Of a stretch of DNA of 64,000 nt, positions 4,012 to 64,000 are shown piece after piece (the stretch's first letter is position 1; each line of letters begins with the position of its first letter). The DNA comes from Escherichia phage vB_EcoM_EP57. The stretch is from sequence record OR544956; one strand, 5' to 3'. The notes under the pieces were generated by a model. That model made no database searches. It worked only from the letters and a program-made list of their open reading frames with translations, and had not been told where the DNA came from. A program made the position numbers and the translations under genes.

Positions 4012-4545
4012 GAATCCGTATCTATATAATTGATGAAGACATTGGTGTCCGTTATGATGACGAAAAACGATTCGCACCGATGGGAGGTATATATCCCCCA
4101 AGTGTTCTAGCAGTTTGTCGTGATTGTTATATTTATGAAGGTTGTCGTAACTTCCGTAAATTCGAACTCCTTGCAGATATTGACTTCAATGAGGAGGAGG
4201 AGTAATGAAAATATTACGAGTGAATATTGAAACTGCTTGGTGTGGATGCAATGAGGTTGTGGATATCGAAATTGAAGATGATATGTCTCAAGAGGATATA
4301 GAAGATCTTGCGCACGAAACCTTTCAGGATTATTGTAATTACGGGTTCCATATTTTAGAGGAGGAAGAAGATGTTTAATTGACTCGACAGGAACTGATCA
4401 CAATCATTGAAGATGCTTTTATTGATGGCTGGAATACACAAGATAATGACTGGGGTGGACCCGAAGCTTTTCTGGAACATCATAAAACTTATGGAGACTC
4501 TTGTGAAACCACTGTAGCTCTTGATAATCTGAAGGAGGGTTTGTA

Positions 4546-12040: not shown

Positions 12041-13561
12041 GTGTCGCACATTATAACTAAATATGGATTTGATGTTGATCTTAGCAAGGAAGGGCATACA
12101 GGTTGTCCGCGCTGCATGAAAAATGGCAAGGATCGCTCTCGTAATAACCTGATGGTTTATGGATTAGATTCTAATGGAGAGCATAAAGGTGCTAAGTGCT
12201 TTGCGTGTGAATACACTATTCCTAGCGTAGAATGGTTACGAGAAAATGGTGAAGTTTTAGAAGAAGAGGAGGAGATTGTGGGTTCGGAATTTAATAAACA
12301 GATTCATCGTAAAATTGTTCAAGAAACATCAACCAACCCACGTGGTTATCGAGGCATTAAAGAAAAAGTTTCATCTTTCTATGGCGTTCGTTATGAATAC
12401 CGTCAGGAAGGGGATCAGATGGTAGTAGAAAGTTGTTTATATCCGACTACCATCGGTAAAGAGTTGGTTGGTTTTAAGCGTCGTATTCATCCTAAAGATT
12501 TCAGTAAACCTATTGGTCAAGTAGGTAAAGATGTAGATCTTTTTGGACAAATTCGTTTTGCAGACCGTTCTCATACTGTGGTAATTACAGGTGGTGAACA
12601 CGATGCTCTGGCAGCTTATCAAATGCTGTCTGAAAACTTGGACAACAAATATGAACTTCCAGCAGTAGTTAGTGGCACAACTGGTGAAACCAGTATGTAT
12701 AAACAAGTTCAGGCACAATATCCTTTCTTTGAAAAATTTAAGAAGATTATTGTTTGCATGGATAATGACAAAGCAGGTAATGAGGCATTTGAAAATATTG
12801 TTAAGGTGCTGCCTCGTAACAAAGTCTACCGTATGCAGATGGATCTAAAGGATGCCAATCAGTATCTGGAAGAAGGCCGTGCAAAAGATTTCGTAAAAGC
12901 TTTTTGGAGTGCTCGTCTATACACCCCAGCAGGTGTTTATGCTTCTAATGTCTTGTATGAAGCTGCATTAGAATGCTTGGAATCCAAGATGATTACCTTG
13001 CCTCCTTTTATGCGTGTTGCTGCAAACATGCTGGGTGGTGGTTTAGTAGAGGAAGAGATTACCGTCATCCTGGCAAAGACCAGTATCGGTAAAACTTTGA
13101 TGGTGAACGAGATCACCAAACATATTATTGTTGCGCACCCAGAACATACCCTAGGTATTCTGTCCTTGGAAGCAACTTATAAGAAATATTCTCGTAACCT
13201 GTTGTCCTCGTTCCTGCATATTCCTCTACACAGGAAAACACCGGAAGAGAAATTTCAAATCTTGGAAGAGAATAAAGAAAAAATCCTAGATTTTTACGAA
13301 AGAGAAGATGGATCACCACGTTTTTATGTGTGTGATGATCGTGGAGCAGATGTGGAGTCTATCAAAGAAAAAGTTTTGGAGATGATCATCTATTTTGGAG
13401 TAACAATTCTTGTTATCGACCCTTATTCTGATTTGCTTTCTGGTATGGATGTTCAAGCCCAGGAAGAGTTAGCAACATGGTTGAAGCGCATCATGAAAGA
13501 GTATGCTATAACCATTATCCACACGTTAAGAAGTCGGCTAATGGTGGCAATGAACACTTAA
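12041..13561 (+). CDS. DNA primase/helicase (T7 gp4-like), N-terminal and central part; reading frame changes near 13520
   Basis: N-terminal Cys4 zinc ribbon (CPRCMKNG...CFACEY), Walker A LAKTSIGKT, beta-strand ITIIH; the C-terminal helicase motifs continue in the -1 frame. Confidence 0.7.
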   Translation: MSHIITKYGFDVDLSKEGHTGCPRCMKNGKDRSRNNLMVYGLDSNGEHKGAKCFACEYTIPSVEWLRENGEVLEEEEEIVGSEFNKQIHRKIVQETSTNPRGYRGIKEKVSSFYGVRYEYRQEGDQMVVESCLYPTTIGKELVGFKRRIHPKDFSKPIGQVGKDVDLFGQIRFADRSHTVVITGGEHDALAAYQMLSENLDNKYELPAVVSGTTGETSMYKQVQAQYPFFEKFKKIIVCMDNDKAGNEAFENIVKVLPRNKVYRMQMDLKDANQYLEEGRAKDFVKAFWSARLYTPAGVYASNVLYEAALECLESKMITLPPFMRVAANMLGGGLVEEEITVILAKTSIGKTLMVNEITKHIIVAHPEHTLGILSLEATYKKYSRNLLSSFLHIPLHRKTPEEKFQILEENKEKILDFYEREDGSPRFYVCDDRGADVESIKEKVLEMIIYFGVTILVIDPYSDLLSGMDVQAQEELATWLKRIMKEYAITIIHTLRSRLMVAMNT

Positions 13562-13812
13562 CAGAGGACGATGCAATGGGTAGTAGTTTCTTGGCTAAAG
13601 GTGCTGGTATTACCTTGGCTTTGGAACGAGATAAAGCCGCTGAAGACCCTGTAGAACGCAATACGACTCATTGCTTTATCCTAAAAAACCGTGAGTTCTC
13701 GGAAACTGGTCCGGCAGGGCAGTTTTACTATGACATTAGAACTGCAACTCTGCATGACAAAGAGCAGTATTTCAACAATCCTGCTAATTTGCCTACGGAT
13801 AGCAACTATTAA
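13477..13812 (+). CDS. C-terminal segment of the primase/helicase in the -1 frame
   Basis: HVKKSANGGNEHLTEDDAMGSSFLAKGAGITLALERDKAAED resembles the T7 gp4 helicase C-terminal motifs (LICHLKNPDKG...[23 protein letters not shown]). Confidence 0.55.
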   Translation: MVEAHHERVCYNHYPHVKKSANGGNEHLTEDDAMGSSFLAKGAGITLALERDKAAEDPVERNTTHCFILKNREFSETGPAGQFYYDIRTATLHDKEQYFNNPANLPTDSNY

Positions 13813-25709: not shown

Positions 25710-26261
25710 TTAAAGTTCCTGTAATGTTAGGAGGTAGTGTGTAGGAAGACTGTGACTATCTTCTATGCGGAAAGCTTCCCCCAGAACCTGAATAACACCA
25801 TTGATCGTAACAATAGCACTATCAAAGATGTAAGGAGGACTAATTACTGTTTCATAACCAGTTGCACCAGAATATACCCAAGGGGTGACTTCTGTTGCCA
25901 ATTGTTCTGTCTTCAGTCCCCACAATACCCAGTTGTTATCTCCTACTGGAGTCCCTTGCATAGGGATAGGGTTAACCAATGTAGCGTTAGGAGCATAGTA
26001 ATAACCGCTCAATACTCCATTCTGGAAATAACGAAGTTGGTTAAAAACTGTTTCGTTTGTGCCTTGCGCCCAATCCAATGGGCTTTTAAAGAAAAAGTTG
26101 TCAACAAGGGCTTTTCTCAGGGTTGGTATCAACCCTGATTCTGTTTCAATACTCTCTGTAGCACTTCCATTAATAACATCATGGAGTTGGTTAGATGAGA
26201 AAATAACCAGGTCTACGCCCTGTTCGAGAGACGTTGCTGGATATGTTGGGAATGTTGCCAT
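25710..26261 (-). CDS. Tailspike N-terminal segment or separate tail-associated protein
   Basis: Ends 5 nt upstream of the next ORF; both frames are open across the junction. Confidence 0.35.
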   Translation of the reverse strand: MATFPTYPATSLEQGVDLVIFSSNQLHDVINGSATESIETESGLIPTLRKALVDNFFFKSPLDWAQGTNETVFNQLRYFQNGVLSGYYYAPNATLVNPIPMQGTPVGDNNWVLWGLKTEQLATEVTPWVYSGATGYETVISPPYIFDSAIVTINGVIQVLGEAFRIEDSHSLPTHYLLTLQEL

Positions 26262-49981: not shown

Positions 49982-52057
49982 TTATCTTTTACGGACACTA
50001 TACGGTTGGTGAAATCCGCTGTTCATTCTACTGTATCCTGTAGGAGCATTTGTTGTTGTAGGGATAGCTACTGCTTTGAAAGTATTCTCTTTTGACAGAG
50101 TATTAAAACAAGAGGCAGCAGCATCGGGAATGTCATCTTTAATAGTGGCTGTAGATCTTTCACCATTGAAAGATTCCAATTCTTTATAAAAGTGGGTTAA
50201 AGTCTCCACATTAGGGAAAGAATCTTCAACAATATAAACAAAACCGTTTTGACACGCACTACTAAAAGGCATGAAACGCTGAAGCTTTTTCTTGTTACCT
50301 GGCATAGCATCTGGTTTAACAACAAAACCCTCTAGAATAAGTTTCTTTGCAGACTCTGTGTATTCTATTGTCCCAGCACCAGATGGGTCTTTAGGAAGCA
50401 CTACTGTAACTTCTGGTCCATCAATCTTACATTGATTTAGAATCAGGTTATCCCTTTCCCCAGGTAGTCTTCGAAACCTTCCGAAAATTTTACTTTTCTC
50501 ATCCACAGCATCATAATCATAGTCGCCAAAGATGTAGATATTACCATCTTGGTCTTTACCCATTTTGACAGATGTTGTATAGTCTGGATAACGGTAAGTT
50601 TCTGTAGGAACTGAAACAGCTTTATCCCATGCTCGCATTAGTTTAAGATTGTTAGGAACATCTTTATAAGATATTTTATGTAACCATTCACGTTGAAAGA
50701 AAGATTCTTTCTGGATACGTGCAAACCAACAACCGTCCAGAAGCTGTGCTCTTTTGATCGCTGTTTGTGATTTAAGCTGTGCTAAGTAATTAGGGTTAAG
50801 CCTAATGAGTTCTGGGTTATCAAATATTGTCCCACCAATAAATACGAAAGTTTGTGGTTCAATAACAACTGTCTCCCCTGTATTAGGGTTTTCCATGAAA
50901 CAGTTTTCTGGATATTTTTCTTTCAGTTCTTCAGGTGTGTCAGCAAAAACAGGTTCATCGTTAACAATGATGAAATATTTTTGTTTACCACACATATCTT
51001 CTCTAGGATAACCACCCTCATCAAGATAAGGTAACACCCAATTCAAAACCCAACTATCTGCGTCAGGGTTACATGTGCACAACATGAAACTTGTTTCTGA
51101 CTCTGAACGCATACGTCCCAGAAGATAGAGCATTTCATATTGTGTGAAGTGGGTTAACTCGTCAAAACCTACCATTGAATACTGTGTACCCTGATGGTTT
51201 GTTTCTGCTGTTACGTTATCATTTTCCAAATGGTCAAATTTGAGGGTTCCGCCACCAGTGGCTTCAAAAATGATATCCATTGTACTTTCTTTTACGTGTG
51301 GTTGTAAAGGAAGATACAAACGTTTTGCTTCTGTAAACAGACCACCTGGTTTACGGTGAGCAGTGGTGTTCTTACGGAAAAGTATTCCACCAAACAAAGG
51401 GTCTTTGTAGGCGTATTTTAAAGCTTTCAGCAATAGCAGACGAGACTTGCCGCTATTCCCAGTAACGAAGCAGTGATCGCCACGTCTAAAGACAATATAG
51501 CTGCTTGGAGTCTCAAAACAATATTTCTTATCATCTGTTGAAATAACCTCGTGTATTTTTAAGTAAGTGCTCTTTTTACCAGGTATGTTAAAAGGAACAC
51601 GTTTACCGAATGGATTTTCTACATAACCTTGCAGGGGTTTTCCTATTTGCTGTAATGCAATAAGATCTCCTACAAGAATCTCGAAATGTTTCTTTGATTT
51701 CTTTTTCTTATAGAATACAAAACGGTGTTCCATACTAAGTTCTTGGAATAATCCTACACCATTTGTTATTCTGTATAGGTTATCTCCATTTAAATCGTAT
51801 TCTACAAAATAAGGTGTTACCAATTCTAAACGCTTATTCTTAGGATTGTATTGGTAAATATCCTCTCCCGAATATTCACTAATCTGCCTCCAACCATCTT
51901 TTGTAAGATATTCCGTTTCAGCAGAAACACATCCAGCGGCACCACCATAAATCATAACCTCTGGCATTAAATCCATTGCAAGAGTCTGTTTACCTGGTTG
52001 AGCCTTTACTTCAATATCTACTCCAGCTAAACTACCTGCTGCCTTTTTCTTTGCCAC
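49982..52057 (-). CDS. Terminase large subunit, intein-containing
   Basis: Walker A split as GGAAG / SGKS by an insertion; C-terminal nuclease region; 691 aa including a 159-aa intein. Confidence 0.8.
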   Translation of the reverse strand: MAKKKAAGSLAGVDIEVKAQPGKQTLAMDLMPEVMIYGGAAGCVSAETEYLTKDGWRQISEYSGEDIYQYNPKNKRLELVTPYFVEYDLNGDNLYRITNGVGLFQELSMEHRFVFYKKKKSKKHFEILVGDLIALQQIGKPLQGYVENPFGKRVPFNIPGKKSTYLKIHEVISTDDKKYCFETPSSYIVFRRGDHCFVTGNSGKSRLLLLKALKYAYKDPLFGGILFRKNTTAHRKPGGLFTEAKRLYLPLQPHVKESTMDIIFEATGGGTLKFDHLENDNVTAETNHQGTQYSMVGFDELTHFTQYEMLYLLGRMRSESETSFMLCTCNPDADSWVLNWVLPYLDEGGYPREDMCGKQKYFIIVNDEPVFADTPEELKEKYPENCFMENPNTGETVVIEPQTFVFIGGTIFDNPELIRLNPNYLAQLKSQTAIKRAQLLDGCWFARIQKESFFQREWLHKISYKDVPNNLKLMRAWDKAVSVPTETYRYPDYTTSVKMGKDQDGNIYIFGDYDYDAVDEKSKIFGRFRRLPGERDNLILNQCKIDGPEVTVVLPKDPSGAGTIEYTESAKKLILEGFVVKPDAMPGNKKKLQRFMPFSSACQNGFVYIVEDSFPNVETLTHFYKELESFNGERSTATIKDDIPDAAASCFNTLSKENTFKAVAIPTTTNAPTGYSRMNSGFHQPYSVRKR
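51455..51931 (-). other. Mini-intein (Hint domain without homing endonuclease) inserted in the terminase P-loop
   Basis: Begins with Cys (CVSAETEYL) right after GGAAG and ends ...DHCFVTGN followed by SGKS; removing it restores a GGAAGSGKS-type P-loop. Confidence 0.6.
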
Positions 52058-53367: not shown

Positions 53368-53396
53368 ATCTTAACATATAAAAAATAATAAGTCAA
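53368..53396 (-). promoter_or_regulatory. Sigma70-like promoter on the minus strand (TTGACT-17-TAAGAT)
   Basis: Followed by AGGAGG and the ATG of 53050..53346. Confidence 0.45.
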
Positions 53397-57332: not shown

Positions 57333-58132
57333 GCAACTATCCAATTACAGGCGTAACCTATTCTTGTGTAGCAAAAGGTGGTTTATATACAGTAGTGGAA
57401 TTTCCAAAACCTGCCGGAATATCTAAAGTGTTTGATCCTGTGGTTATCTATGAAGATCTTAGAACAGGTCAACGTTACTGGAGATTTGTGAATGACTTTT
57501 TAGATCGTATGGAGGTAGTAAGTGGCGAAAACACCGAAGAAGTTATCAAAGCCAACGTTACTAAGAAACCGAAAAACGAGGTTCTCAAAGTAGCCAAATC
57601 AGTTCCTAAGAAAGATAAATTTGATACGGAGGCATTCGTCTTTGACACACCAATCGAGAAGATTGAAGAAGCGTTGCAACGTCTTGAGGAGCAGGAGGCA
57701 GATCCAATGGCTGAACCACTCGCTGAAGCAAAAAACATTGGTCGTTCCAATGAAACAACACCAGAAGAACAAGCTGAACTTGAAGCTTTTGCCAAATGGA
57801 CAAAACAGTTAAAGAATGGCTATTATAAAACAAAAGAAGAAGCTGAAAACCATGTTCCTTCCACACCAATGAAATGCCAGGATTATAAAGATTATCCTGA
57901 AAGGGTTGTGTTCCCTGGTTATGCACAATACAAACTGAACGGGTTACGTTCTATGATTAACATGAAAGGAGAGTGTTTATCAAAAGCTGGGGAAGTGTAC
58001 AACCTGCCACCTCATTGGAAAGGTATTCCAAACTTTATTAGTGAAGTTGTTGGTCATCCTCTTGATGGTGAAGTGTTTGCTGGGTTAGGTGTCCTTAGTC
58101 TGCAACAAATTAACAGTGCTTGCAGTAGTTGA
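57329..58132 (+). CDS. ATP-dependent DNA ligase-like protein, N-terminal and adenylation part; frame changes near 58090-58130
   Basis: Motif I-like YKLNGLR (KxDG-type with N in place of D) and motif III-like LDGEVFA. Confidence 0.45.
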   Translation: MSNYPITGVTYSCVAKGGLYTVVEFPKPAGISKVFDPVVIYEDLRTGQRYWRFVNDFLDRMEVVSGENTEEVIKANVTKKPKNEVLKVAKSVPKKDKFDTEAFVFDTPIEKIEEALQRLEEQEADPMAEPLAEAKNIGRSNETTPEEQAELEAFAKWTKQLKNGYYKTKEEAENHVPSTPMKCQDYKDYPERVVFPGYAQYKLNGLRSMINMKGECLSKAGEVYNLPPHWKGIPNFISEVVGHPLDGEVFAGLGVLSLQQINSACSS

Positions 58133-59607: not shown

Positions 59608-60486
59608 ATGTTTGTAAAATCTTTTAAATCCGCTCTGCCTATGGTTGTTGGTGACAATGCTTCTGTAGCATCCCTTAACAGCATTACAGATATTCCTCTG
59701 GAATTTGTAACAGCAGAAGGCTCCCAGTCACACACTATTGGTCTTGTTCGTTTTGAAGATGACTCTAAATTTGTAAAAGAGTTCTCAGATCTTGAACTGC
59801 TTAATGTAGGTCAATCTGTGAAGAAGGTAGATAAAAAGAAAGTTAAACGTATTCTGAATGAACGTCTAGAAGAAATGCGTCAGGACATGGAGAGCGAAGG
59901 TAAAGAGTTTTATGTCGATAAAGAAGTAGTCAAAGCAATGAAGGAAGATATTGAATTTGCACTATTGCCTGAAACAGAACCTGAAGATTTCTTTAACTAT
60001 GTTGTCTTGGATAAAACTACGAATCTTCTTTATGTTCTTAATGGAAGTAAAAAGGTTGCAGAAGAGATTACTTCTTTCCTCCGTTCCGTTCTGGGGACTT
60101 TCCCTTCGGTAGGTTTTAGTGTGCATGAAGAAGCTATTGTAAAAGGTTTTGGTGAATTGCTGGAGAATCACGAAGCAGATCGTATTACTCTCGGAAATTA
60201 TATCAAAATGGAGGATAGCGAGGGCGTTGTTGTTTGGAGTAAAGAATCCCTATACGAGTCTAAAGCTGTCGAACTAAAAGAAGATGGTAAAGATGTTGTT
60301 GCAATCGGTCTTGAATATGACGGTGTTGTAGATTTTGTAGTGGATAAAGAGTTTAAACTTTCTAAACTACGTTTTCCGAAATATTTTGCAGACGAAGAAG
60401 GTAGTATTGAAGCTTCAGTCCTTCTGTGCTTCAATGAGATTCGAGGTCTGATGGAAGATTTAACCAAAGCAACAATCCTTAAATAA
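59608..60486 (+). CDS. RdgC-like recombination-associated protein
   Basis: About 290 aa; pattern resembling E. coli RdgC in the C-terminal half. Confidence 0.4.
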   Translation: MFVKSFKSALPMVVGDNASVASLNSITDIPLEFVTAEGSQSHTIGLVRFEDDSKFVKEFSDLELLNVGQSVKKVDKKKVKRILNERLEEMRQDMESEGKEFYVDKEVVKAMKEDIEFALLPETEPEDFFNYVVLDKTTNLLYVLNGSKKVAEEITSFLRSVLGTFPSVGFSVHEEAIVKGFGELLENHEADRITLGNYIKMEDSEGVVVWSKESLYESKAVELKEDGKDVVAIGLEYDGVVDFVVDKEFKLSKLRFPKYFADEEGSIEASVLLCFNEIRGLMEDLTKATILK

Positions 60487-60490
60487 GTTC

Positions 60491-60519
60491 TTGACTTGCG
60501 GGATTAGTTATGATATTAT
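60491..60519 (+). promoter_or_regulatory. Sigma70-type promoter (TTGACT-17-TATTAT)
   Basis: Near-consensus boxes, then aggagg and the ATG at 60559. Confidence 0.5.
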
Positions 60520-60548
60520 GCCTACCTACTTAATGAGGTAGGCTTTTT
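60520..60548 (+). terminator. Intrinsic terminator overlapping the promoter-proximal region (GCCTACCT ... AGGTAGGC then TTTTT)
   Basis: 8-bp stem followed by a T-run. Confidence 0.45.
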
Positions 60549-60558
60549 AGGAGGCGTT

Positions 60559-60768
60559 ATGAAAAAGATTCTGACAGTCGTTCTTTTAGCTTTTAGTTTC
60601 ACAGTAGCAGCAGGTCAAATTACTTTAATCTTGTCTGATTCTGAAGTTAATGGCAATACAAAATATTGCTACTATTCTAACGCTAACCAAGATGAAGTTA
60701 TAGCAATCCCGAAAAGTCGTCAATGTCCGTATACTAAAACATTCTCAACAGAGGATGACGATGAATAA
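60559..60768 (+). CDS. Small secreted protein (signal peptide, two Cys, acidic tail)
   Basis: MKKILTVVLLAFSFTVAAGQ signal peptide. Confidence 0.45.
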   Translation: MKKILTVVLLAFSFTVAAGQITLILSDSEVNGNTKYCYYSNANQDEVIAIPKSRQCPYTKTFSTEDDDE

Positions 60769-61209
60769 TTAGGGGGAAATATTAGCGGTTATATTTTAAT
60801 TAAGCCTGAAGATCTTCATTTATATGTCAACGAAGAAACAATAGCTGCAATTGATTATGATCAGATCGCTTTCCAAGCAGCGTCTGCATTAGAGAAAAGA
60901 ACAATCATTGCAAAGCACATCCCTTCAGGTGCTCAAAAGGAATTTAAAAATAAGACAGAGTTTTGGGGTAAAAGCAAGACTAAGATTGGAGGTTGGCTAG
61001 GAGATACAAATGCAGAAAGAGCCTCCAAAAACAAACGTCCCTTCACAAAGGAAGAGTTCGAAATCATTGATAAGCAATACCCGCCAGAAGATATCGGACA
61101 CACCTTCCAAGCAGCTAAAACAAAAGTCTTAGGTATTCTAAAACATCTACGTTTAGAAAAATATTGCGGAGTTATTGGCGTAGGAAAAACTTTCAGACAC
61201 GCCTTCAAA

Positions 61210-61899
61210 ATGCCTGTAGAATATAAATCTGAACGATTAGATATCAAACCACTTCAGCTTTCAGAAACCAAAGATTATCTTGTGGAGTTCCACAATGGTG
61301 ATGTTGTTACTGTAATAGAAGCTGATGATGAGTTAGAGAAGTATGGTTTCCAAGGTTATAAAGATTATAAAAGGACGGGTAAATTTTCTTATATCGTTGT
61401 ATCTATAGATAAAGATAGTTTACATACTCCTAGTATCCTTTTTAATTTCTACAAAGAGGATGGAGTATTTAAAAATCCAGATATAATTCTTATTGACGAG
61501 TCTATTGGCGATATATGGATCGTAGATAAAGGTAAAAAGAAAGAAGTTAAAGGTTGGGGCAGTTACTGGTTAGCATATCAGATGCTAATGGGAGATAAAA
61601 CAGATAGTATCCGACCTTATCAAGATTTTGATATTAAGTTCGGAGATATTACTTGTTTTAATCTTCTTTCAGCTTGTAAAACTCAAGCAGAACTTTTCCA
61701 AACAGTTAAAGACACTTACTACTCATGGTTCCCAGAGGGTGTTAATTTTACTTCTTGGGATGGAGAAGAAGTCCATATGACAACAGATGAATGGATAGAA
61801 ACAATTTTCCAGTTGGTATACATGAAACGCTGGGATAATGACGATACAACATTTGAGAGTATGCTTCAGTCATACATCTCGCAACAGGAGGCAGAGTGA
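61210..61899 (+). CDS. Hypothetical protein; the reading frame is open from 60769 with no canonical start before 61210
   Basis: Same frame as 60559..60768, separated only by the TAA at 60766-60768. Confidence 0.35.
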   Translation: MPVEYKSERLDIKPLQLSETKDYLVEFHNGDVVTVIEADDELEKYGFQGYKDYKRTGKFSYIVVSIDKDSLHTPSILFNFYKEDGVFKNPDIILIDESIGDIWIVDKGKKKEVKGWGSYWLAYQMLMGDKTDSIRPYQDFDIKFGDITCFNLLSACKTQAELFQTVKDTYYSWFPEGVNFTSWDGEEVHMTTDEWIETIFQLVYMKRWDNDDTTFESMLQSYISQQEAE

Positions 61900-63680: not shown

Positions 63681-64000
63681 ATGTGGGGTGAAGGAACACC
63701 CTGGAAAACACAAGCTGAATTTTATACTTATCTTAGGGGATGTTTTAGAAAAGCATGGATGAGACACCCTAATAAAATTAAGGTTATCAATGCAAGGCGT
63801 TTTAAAGTTGATCGTGTAGATAAAGACGGCAATGTAATGATAGACAAGAAAACTGGAAAACCAAAACAAGTTTGGAATTGTGAGTGCGAAATATGTGGAC
63901 ACAGAGGAGGAATGAAAGACTTCCAAGTGGATCATATTCACGCAGCAAAACAACTTCAATGTTTTGAGGATATTCCCCTTTTTGTTTTCCGTTTAATCTA
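63681..64000 (+). CDS. HNH/endonuclease VII-like nuclease, 5' partial (runs off the window end)
   Basis: CECEICGHRGGMKDFQVDHIHAAKQ resembles the T4 endonuclease VII CxxC ... HLDHDH zinc/catalytic region; no stop before 64000. Confidence 0.4.
   Translation, partial: MWGEGTPWKTQAEFYTYLRGCFRKAWMRHPNKIKVINARRFKVDRVDKDGNVMIDKKTGKPKQVWNCECEICGHRGGMKDFQVDHIHAAKQLQCFEDIPLFVFRLI

Follow-up and report, generated by a model that had tools for sequence, protein, structure and literature searches.

The primase-helicase gene of the window (the whole stretch of 64000 nt of DNA that was analysed) is interrupted by a 7-nt gap which very probably originated as a sequence or assembly dropout, and the resulting split of the gene is most likely not a real biological feature. 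The phage would possess an ordinary single-polypeptide primase-helicase of the T7 gp4 type, from which 7 nt were lost during the making of the sequence. A technical origin is favoured because the lesion occurs in this sequence alone and comes together with 32 more unselected deletions, with essential genes among those damaged. The window belongs to a Phapecoctavirus, i.e., a phAPEC8-like E. coli myovirus of the subfamily Stephanstirmvirinae, and its nearest match in the phage collection is phage tuntematon (MN850618), with an identity of 99.3% in 6 pieces; aligned to tuntematon as a whole, the window is 99.4% identical. In the window and in the phages tuntematon, phAPEC8, and TSP7_1 alike, hypothetical genes are followed by the primase/helicase gene, a small ORF, and the genes coding for an N6-adenine methyltransferase and a DNA polymerase.

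The primase-helicase gene is read in two frames, as proposed in the initial annotation: the upstream ORF stops at 13561, while the helicase goes on to 13812 in the -1 frame. The features concerned are the following:

12041..13561, + strand: upstream ORF of the primase-helicase (from the ORF list), 506 aa, ending in ...EYAITIIHTLRSRLMVAMNT and containing a putative zinc-finger region, the Toprim primase, and the SF4 helicase core in its N-terminal two thirds
13432..13561, + strand: 130 nt over which both the original and the -1 frame are open (sequence and scan)
13477..13812, + strand: ATG-started ORF in the -1 frame, 111 aa, reading ...HVKKSANGGNEH...
13517..13519: codon ATC, at which the true protein sequence in the upstream ORF ends
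13519..13520, + strand: deletion junction ATTATC^CACACG, from which GTCATCT is gone (alignment to relatives)
13519..13812, + strand: C-terminal part of the helicase in the -1 frame, PHVKKSANGGNEH...FILKNREF...DSNY followed by a stop, with the His of motif H3, the stretch opposite T7 H4 in the alignment, and the Arg that pairs with T7 Arg522

The last 14 codons of the upstream ORF on the + strand (HTLRSRLMVAMNT and the stop) are an out-of-frame read-through, and direct reading of the sequence finds the -1 frame open from 13432. A deletion in the sequence had been correctly named as the cause of the break, but its size had been put at one base and the window-wide set of deletions had gone unnoticed; by alignment it comprises 7 nt, GTCATCT, with the same net change of -1.

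When aligned to tuntematon, TSP7_1, and phAPEC8, the window lacks exactly GTCATCT (tuntematon 53377-53383) between 13519 and 13520, the flanks being otherwise identical, and the comparison with ESCO37 gives the identical 7-nt gap at 13519|13520. The placement of the gap is unique, with a microhomology of 0, and the window allele at the junction, without GTCATCT, reads ATTATCCACACG. The gene is 1772 nt long in the window and 1779 nt in the relatives; each listed match in the 70 of 70 phage records aligned over at least 80% of the query is 1779 nt in length, and the annotated ones among these 70 close phage records have a single primase/helicase CDS each. Among 1033 phage records, a 152-aa segment across the site runs without interruption in 1013, at identities from 100% to ~27%; in 64 phage records its identity is 99% or higher. 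The deleted junction, searched with its polymorphic positions made degenerate, gave 0 matches in each of IMG/VR, the GTDB genomes, and the JGI metagenomes, and the intact junction pattern was found in one IMG/VR contig. The truncated protein of 506 aa, looked up by its exact sequence, has no entry on record, and a search of complete E. coli genomes for the phage gene, serving as a test for a decaying prophage, gave no match. The 7-nt lesion is unique to this sequence among its near-identical relatives and the public collections searched.

With GTCATCT put back, the gene codes for a 592-aa protein with 0 amino-acid differences from those of tuntematon, phAPEC8, and TSP7_1, and all 9 of the 9 nucleotide differences between the repaired gene and that of tuntematon are synonymous. 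Since no amino-acid differences remain after the repair, purifying selection acted on the gene in full until this very sequence. The primase-helicase is free of any decay, and the break is either extremely recent or not biological.

Two domains were identified by Pfam in the upstream ORF: Toprim_2 (PF13155, residues 182-276, E 2.9e-9, 37.6 bits with the cut-off at 22.1) and DnaB_C (PF03796, residues 333-494, E 7e-11, 42.4 bits with the cut-off at 27). In a search of solved structures, the primase part also aligned with the T7 primase fragment 1nui. A Walker A P-loop is present, with 'AKTSIGKT' opposite T7 'SGSGMGKS' in the alignment to T7 gp4, and the translation contains CPRC...CFAC (residues ~22-25 and ~53-56), a candidate N-terminal Cys4 zinc-binding motif, the T7 alignment beginning only at residue 146. 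Among solved structures (PDB entries of T7 gp4 6n7i, 5ikn, 1q57, and 1e0j were compared), the upstream ORF alone matches T7 gp4 from residue 122 to ~441-453 with 67.3 bits, and the two-frame fusion at 13519 extends the alignment through residue 543 with 82.8 bits. Because the fusion aligns further into T7 gp4 than the upstream ORF alone, the helicase continues in the -1 frame. For comparison, an intact relative aligns with T7 gp4 residues 122-543 at 90.8 bits (E 7e-25 to 2e-24), which takes in Toprim through the entire SF4 helicase core. The match of the -1 frame to T7 gp4 helicase motifs, reported in the initial annotation, is found within the whole protein, but the downstream piece of 97 aa taken alone has no significant match among PDB sequences or in Pfam; the T7-motif match of the downstream piece holds only in the whole-protein context.

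The missing bases code for part of V-I-S, immediately before the motif H3 His, and the deletion shifts the last 98 codons, from this His onward and including H4 and the arginine finger, to the -1 frame. In the alignment of the intact relative the affected segment '...AITIIVISHVKKS...' lies opposite T7 '...VVLVVICHLKNP...'. Here 'IIVISH' pairs with T7 'VVICH', the His being T7 His465 of motif H3 (counted on 6n7i numbering), and the Arg of 'FILKNREF' pairs with T7 Arg522 in 'ILKCRF', residues which we take, following the established T7 literature, to be the gamma-phosphate sensor and the arginine finger, respectively. The helicase core of the window is thus not contained in one polypeptide: it is broken after the codon preceding the motif H3 His, and the split, lying inside the RecA-like core, leaves Walker A and B on one side and the arginine finger on the other. 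A product of 506 aa would keep the primase and Walker A and B and lose motif H4 and the arginine finger; judging from these motifs, function as a hexameric SF4 helicase would be unlikely and cannot be expected of this form. In all relatives, and in the window after the 7-nt repair, a single polypeptide carries the whole helicase core, from motifs H1 to H4 to the arginine finger.

The gap in the primase-helicase gene is one of many. In BLAST the window is collinear with tuntematon: just 2 of its 64000 bases stay unaligned, it contains no Ns, and the mismatches number 363 (0.57%). Relative to tuntematon it has 33 window-only deletions of 2 to 4044 nt, ~10.8 kb in total, given here by length and, separately, by position:

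Deletion lengths (nt): 2, 2, 4, 4, 6, 6, 6, 7, 12, 17, 19, 20, 25, 28, 38, 51, 56, 63, 65, 73, 91, 107, 110, 135, 144, 152, 223, 281, 486, 1090, 1247, 2227, 4044
Deletion junctions (window): 78, 4379, 8319, 13520, 18528, 20245, 22476, 24997, 25758, 26585, 27912, 29148, 29549, 31909, 32395, 33615, 34402, 38604, 41110, 43406, 43530, 52057, 54926, 56504, 56824, 57186, 57252, 57555, 57721, 58122, 59539, 62033, 63004

The sequences deleted within the first 45 kb are also missing in comparison with phAPEC8 and ESCO37, so that these losses are the window's own. The lengths are distributed among the mod-3 classes as 10/11/12, without bias toward multiples of three, and the junction microhomology, which ranges from 0 to 4 nt, has a mean of 0.94 nt versus a random expectation of 0.70 nt in this DNA (31 of the 33 deletions). 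Comparison of the deletion coordinates with the tuntematon annotation reveals that ~40 annotated genes are damaged or lost; by our own count ~23 CDSs are frameshifted or truncated, ~16 are removed outright, and 4 have in-frame losses. The frameshifted or truncated genes include those coding for TerC, the primase/helicase, a tRNA nucleotidyltransferase, a colanic-acid-degrading tail protein, the tail fibre tuntematon_142 (three separate deletions), a structural protein, and DNA ligase; genes for tail tube proteins are among those hit as well. No viable phage could carry the full set of deletions, and no record carrying them was found in the phage collection.

Two of the damaged loci deserve separate description. 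At 52056-52057 a 6-nt loss (CATTTC on the + strand) deletes the spacer between the ribosome-binding site AAGGAG and the GTG of the terminase large subunit gene, located on the minus strand, and the annotated GTG start codon is recreated at the junction. In the 57721-58122 region a deletion of 4044 nt takes ~12 small early genes together with the first ~138 nt of the gene coding for an ATP-dependent DNA ligase, the remainder of which is frameshifted by a further 107-nt deletion.

Only two insertions distinguish the window from tuntematon, a GAG repeat unit and one A. The former, at 4191-4193, belongs to a repeat of GAG codons (Glu) with which a small ORF, the homologue of tuntematon_100, ends; the copy number of this repeat differs among phages, with one unit more in the window than in tuntematon and one fewer than in phAPEC8 and ESCO37; it is the sole indel of the window resembling ordinary natural variation. 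As a 1-nt insertion the latter, at 25755, stands alone in the window and lies 3 nt from the junction of the 281-nt deletion (25758) in the gene for the colanic-acid-degrading tail protein; it may be an alignment or joining scar. The window has no DNA of its own relative to tuntematon, whereas real relatives carry replaced modules.

The point differences between the window and tuntematon have a character distinct from that of the deletions. They comprise 292 synonymous and 50 nonsynonymous substitutions and 21 located outside long ORFs, so that 85% are synonymous versus 22% expected at random; the point differences passed through selection, while the deletions did not. Control comparisons of tuntematon with ESCO37 or phAPEC8 over the same region (97.6-98.2% identity) gave no deletion pattern like that of the window. 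The differences in these pairs are in-frame or intergenic indels, compensating single-base gaps in divergent stretches, and block replacements in the tail-fibre modules. Four of the five largest deletions of the window enclose, wholly or almost wholly, the four variable blocks of the relatives in the tail-fibre region (deletions and blocks are given in tuntematon coordinates):

Window 20245: deletion of 1090 nt, 60201-61290; variable block 60200-61144
Window 22476: deletion of 486 nt, 63522-64007; variable block 63784-63944
Window 26585: deletion of 1247 nt, 68401-69647; variable block 68428-69240
Window 29148: deletion of 2227 nt, 72321-74547; variable block 72329-74706

The left boundaries of block and deletion match within 1-8 nt in two cases, and the fourth variable block exceeds its deletion by ~160 nt in the comparison with ESCO37. 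This coincidence suggests that the true phage has divergent receptor-binding modules at these sites, which never entered the sequence. Since these large deletions fall on strain-variable modules, mapping of reads to a related reference or broken contigs are their probable cause; random mutation or editing would not pick such modules.

Possible routes to a sequence of this kind would be a mapping- or reference-guided consensus, or the concatenation of contigs, with uncovered or unmappable stretches dropped without Ns; some later editing of the sequence would be an alternative. With mapping or contig joining, the small gaps would be ordinary coverage holes. Nevertheless, the seven gaps of up to 7 nt are more than a simple exponential coverage-gap model predicts (own estimate), and the mismatch density near the junctions is not raised, as it might have been at contig ends of low coverage (0.29% at up to 10 nt from a junction and 0.84% at up to 30 nt versus 0.56% elsewhere). 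The exact artefact route is uncertain because of this excess of very small gaps and the absence of a raised mismatch density at the junctions. Repeat collapse in a de Bruijn graph was considered and rejected, the junction microhomology being 0-4 nt and not of k-mer length. A long-read error of the homopolymer type was rejected as well, there being essentially no 1-nt indels in the window.

A genuine 7-nt deletion in real DNA, with a dead gene in a defective genome of the phage population or in a decaying remnant, is the main rival but an unlikely explanation, though one with several points in its favour: the gap is clean with perfectly matching flanks, the base-level quality is high, as reflected by the 85% of synonymous substitutions, and, judged by the sequence alone, a faulty consensus looks no different from a real molecule. 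In principle, the 7-nt deletion could also be the one real loss among artefactual ones. Against a genuine deletion, the 32 companion deletions in tail, ligase, and other essential genes leave no propagating phage, and a remnant is at odds with the lack of host flanks in the window, of a match in complete E. coli genomes, and of the junction in GTDB. Moreover, the broken gene has not decayed, having accumulated 0 nonsynonymous changes. Spontaneous deletions usually form between short direct repeats, while the mean junction microhomology of 0.94 nt is near the random value of 0.70 nt, and the match of the largest losses to strain-variable modules is explained by mapping or assembly and not by random mutation. 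It is highly improbable that a replicating phage truly carries the 7-nt deletion and survives with a helicase cut off ahead of the arginine finger, owing to host DnaB/DnaG, to the enzyme of a co-infecting helper, or to complementation between the 506-aa fragment and the 111-aa C-terminal piece translated on its own.

Programmed recoding, whether by transcriptional slippage or by a -1 ribosomal frameshift, can be given practically no credence, and neither can an active enzyme assembled by design from two polypeptides, the primase with the front half of the helicase and the 111-aa C-terminal piece, even though both frames are open across the 130 nt of 13432..13561, a weak AGGA-like purine stretch lies ~12 nt upstream of the ATG at 13477, and T7 makes two gp4 forms, through internal initiation. 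A scan of the 13432..13561 overlap found neither an X XXY YYZ heptamer nor a homopolymer of at least 4 nt, in agreement with the earlier statement that a slippery sequence is lacking, and transcriptional slippage is likewise opposed by the lack of any run of at least four identical bases. The T7 gp4-like primase-helicase identity of the gene and the location of the break outside a recoding site, both put forward in the initial annotation, hold. The two-frame arrangement is found in no relative, from 99% to ~27% identity. A -1 slip at the junction would yield ...AITIIPHVKK..., two residues shorter and with Pro in place of Ser beside the motif H3 His, and two separate polypeptides would divide the RecA-like core between the Walker A/B motifs and the arginine finger. 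Equally close to dismissal is a one-base sequencing error, a miscall of the homopolymer type: it would account for the net frame change of -1, but the alignment has 7 bases missing in a non-repetitive context, and just one 1-nt indel (25755) occurs in the window, unlike in sequences from homopolymer-prone platforms.

With a dropout of 7 nt as the preferred explanation, nothing on recoding or split helicases is to be drawn from this broken textbook gene, and the value of the case lies mainly in quality control. Other findings of frameshifts, split genes, truncated tail fibres, or missing genes in the window most likely have the same trivial cause, and if its source is a deposited genome, the record merits re-assembly.

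Compared with the programmed -1 frameshifts of phages and with dnaX, the window resembles the tail-assembly chaperone G/GT and dnaX systems in that a gene is continued in the -1 frame past an overlap; unlike in these, the overlap lacks a slippery site, relatives do not share the arrangement, and the frame changes within a catalytic core. T7 gp4 is a distant relative of the protein of the window and its relatives, with only 82-91 bits across ~430 aligned residues. Its two forms result from internal initiation in one frame, whereas the gene of the window is interrupted by a frame change. The closest homologues are the primase/helicases of tuntematon (QHR71974.1), phAPEC8 (AFU62761.1), and Dompiswa phage TSP7_1 (QPX72035.1): lacking GTCATCT, the window differs from these in having 506 aa plus a -1 frame remainder, and after the 7-nt repair its protein is identical to theirs.
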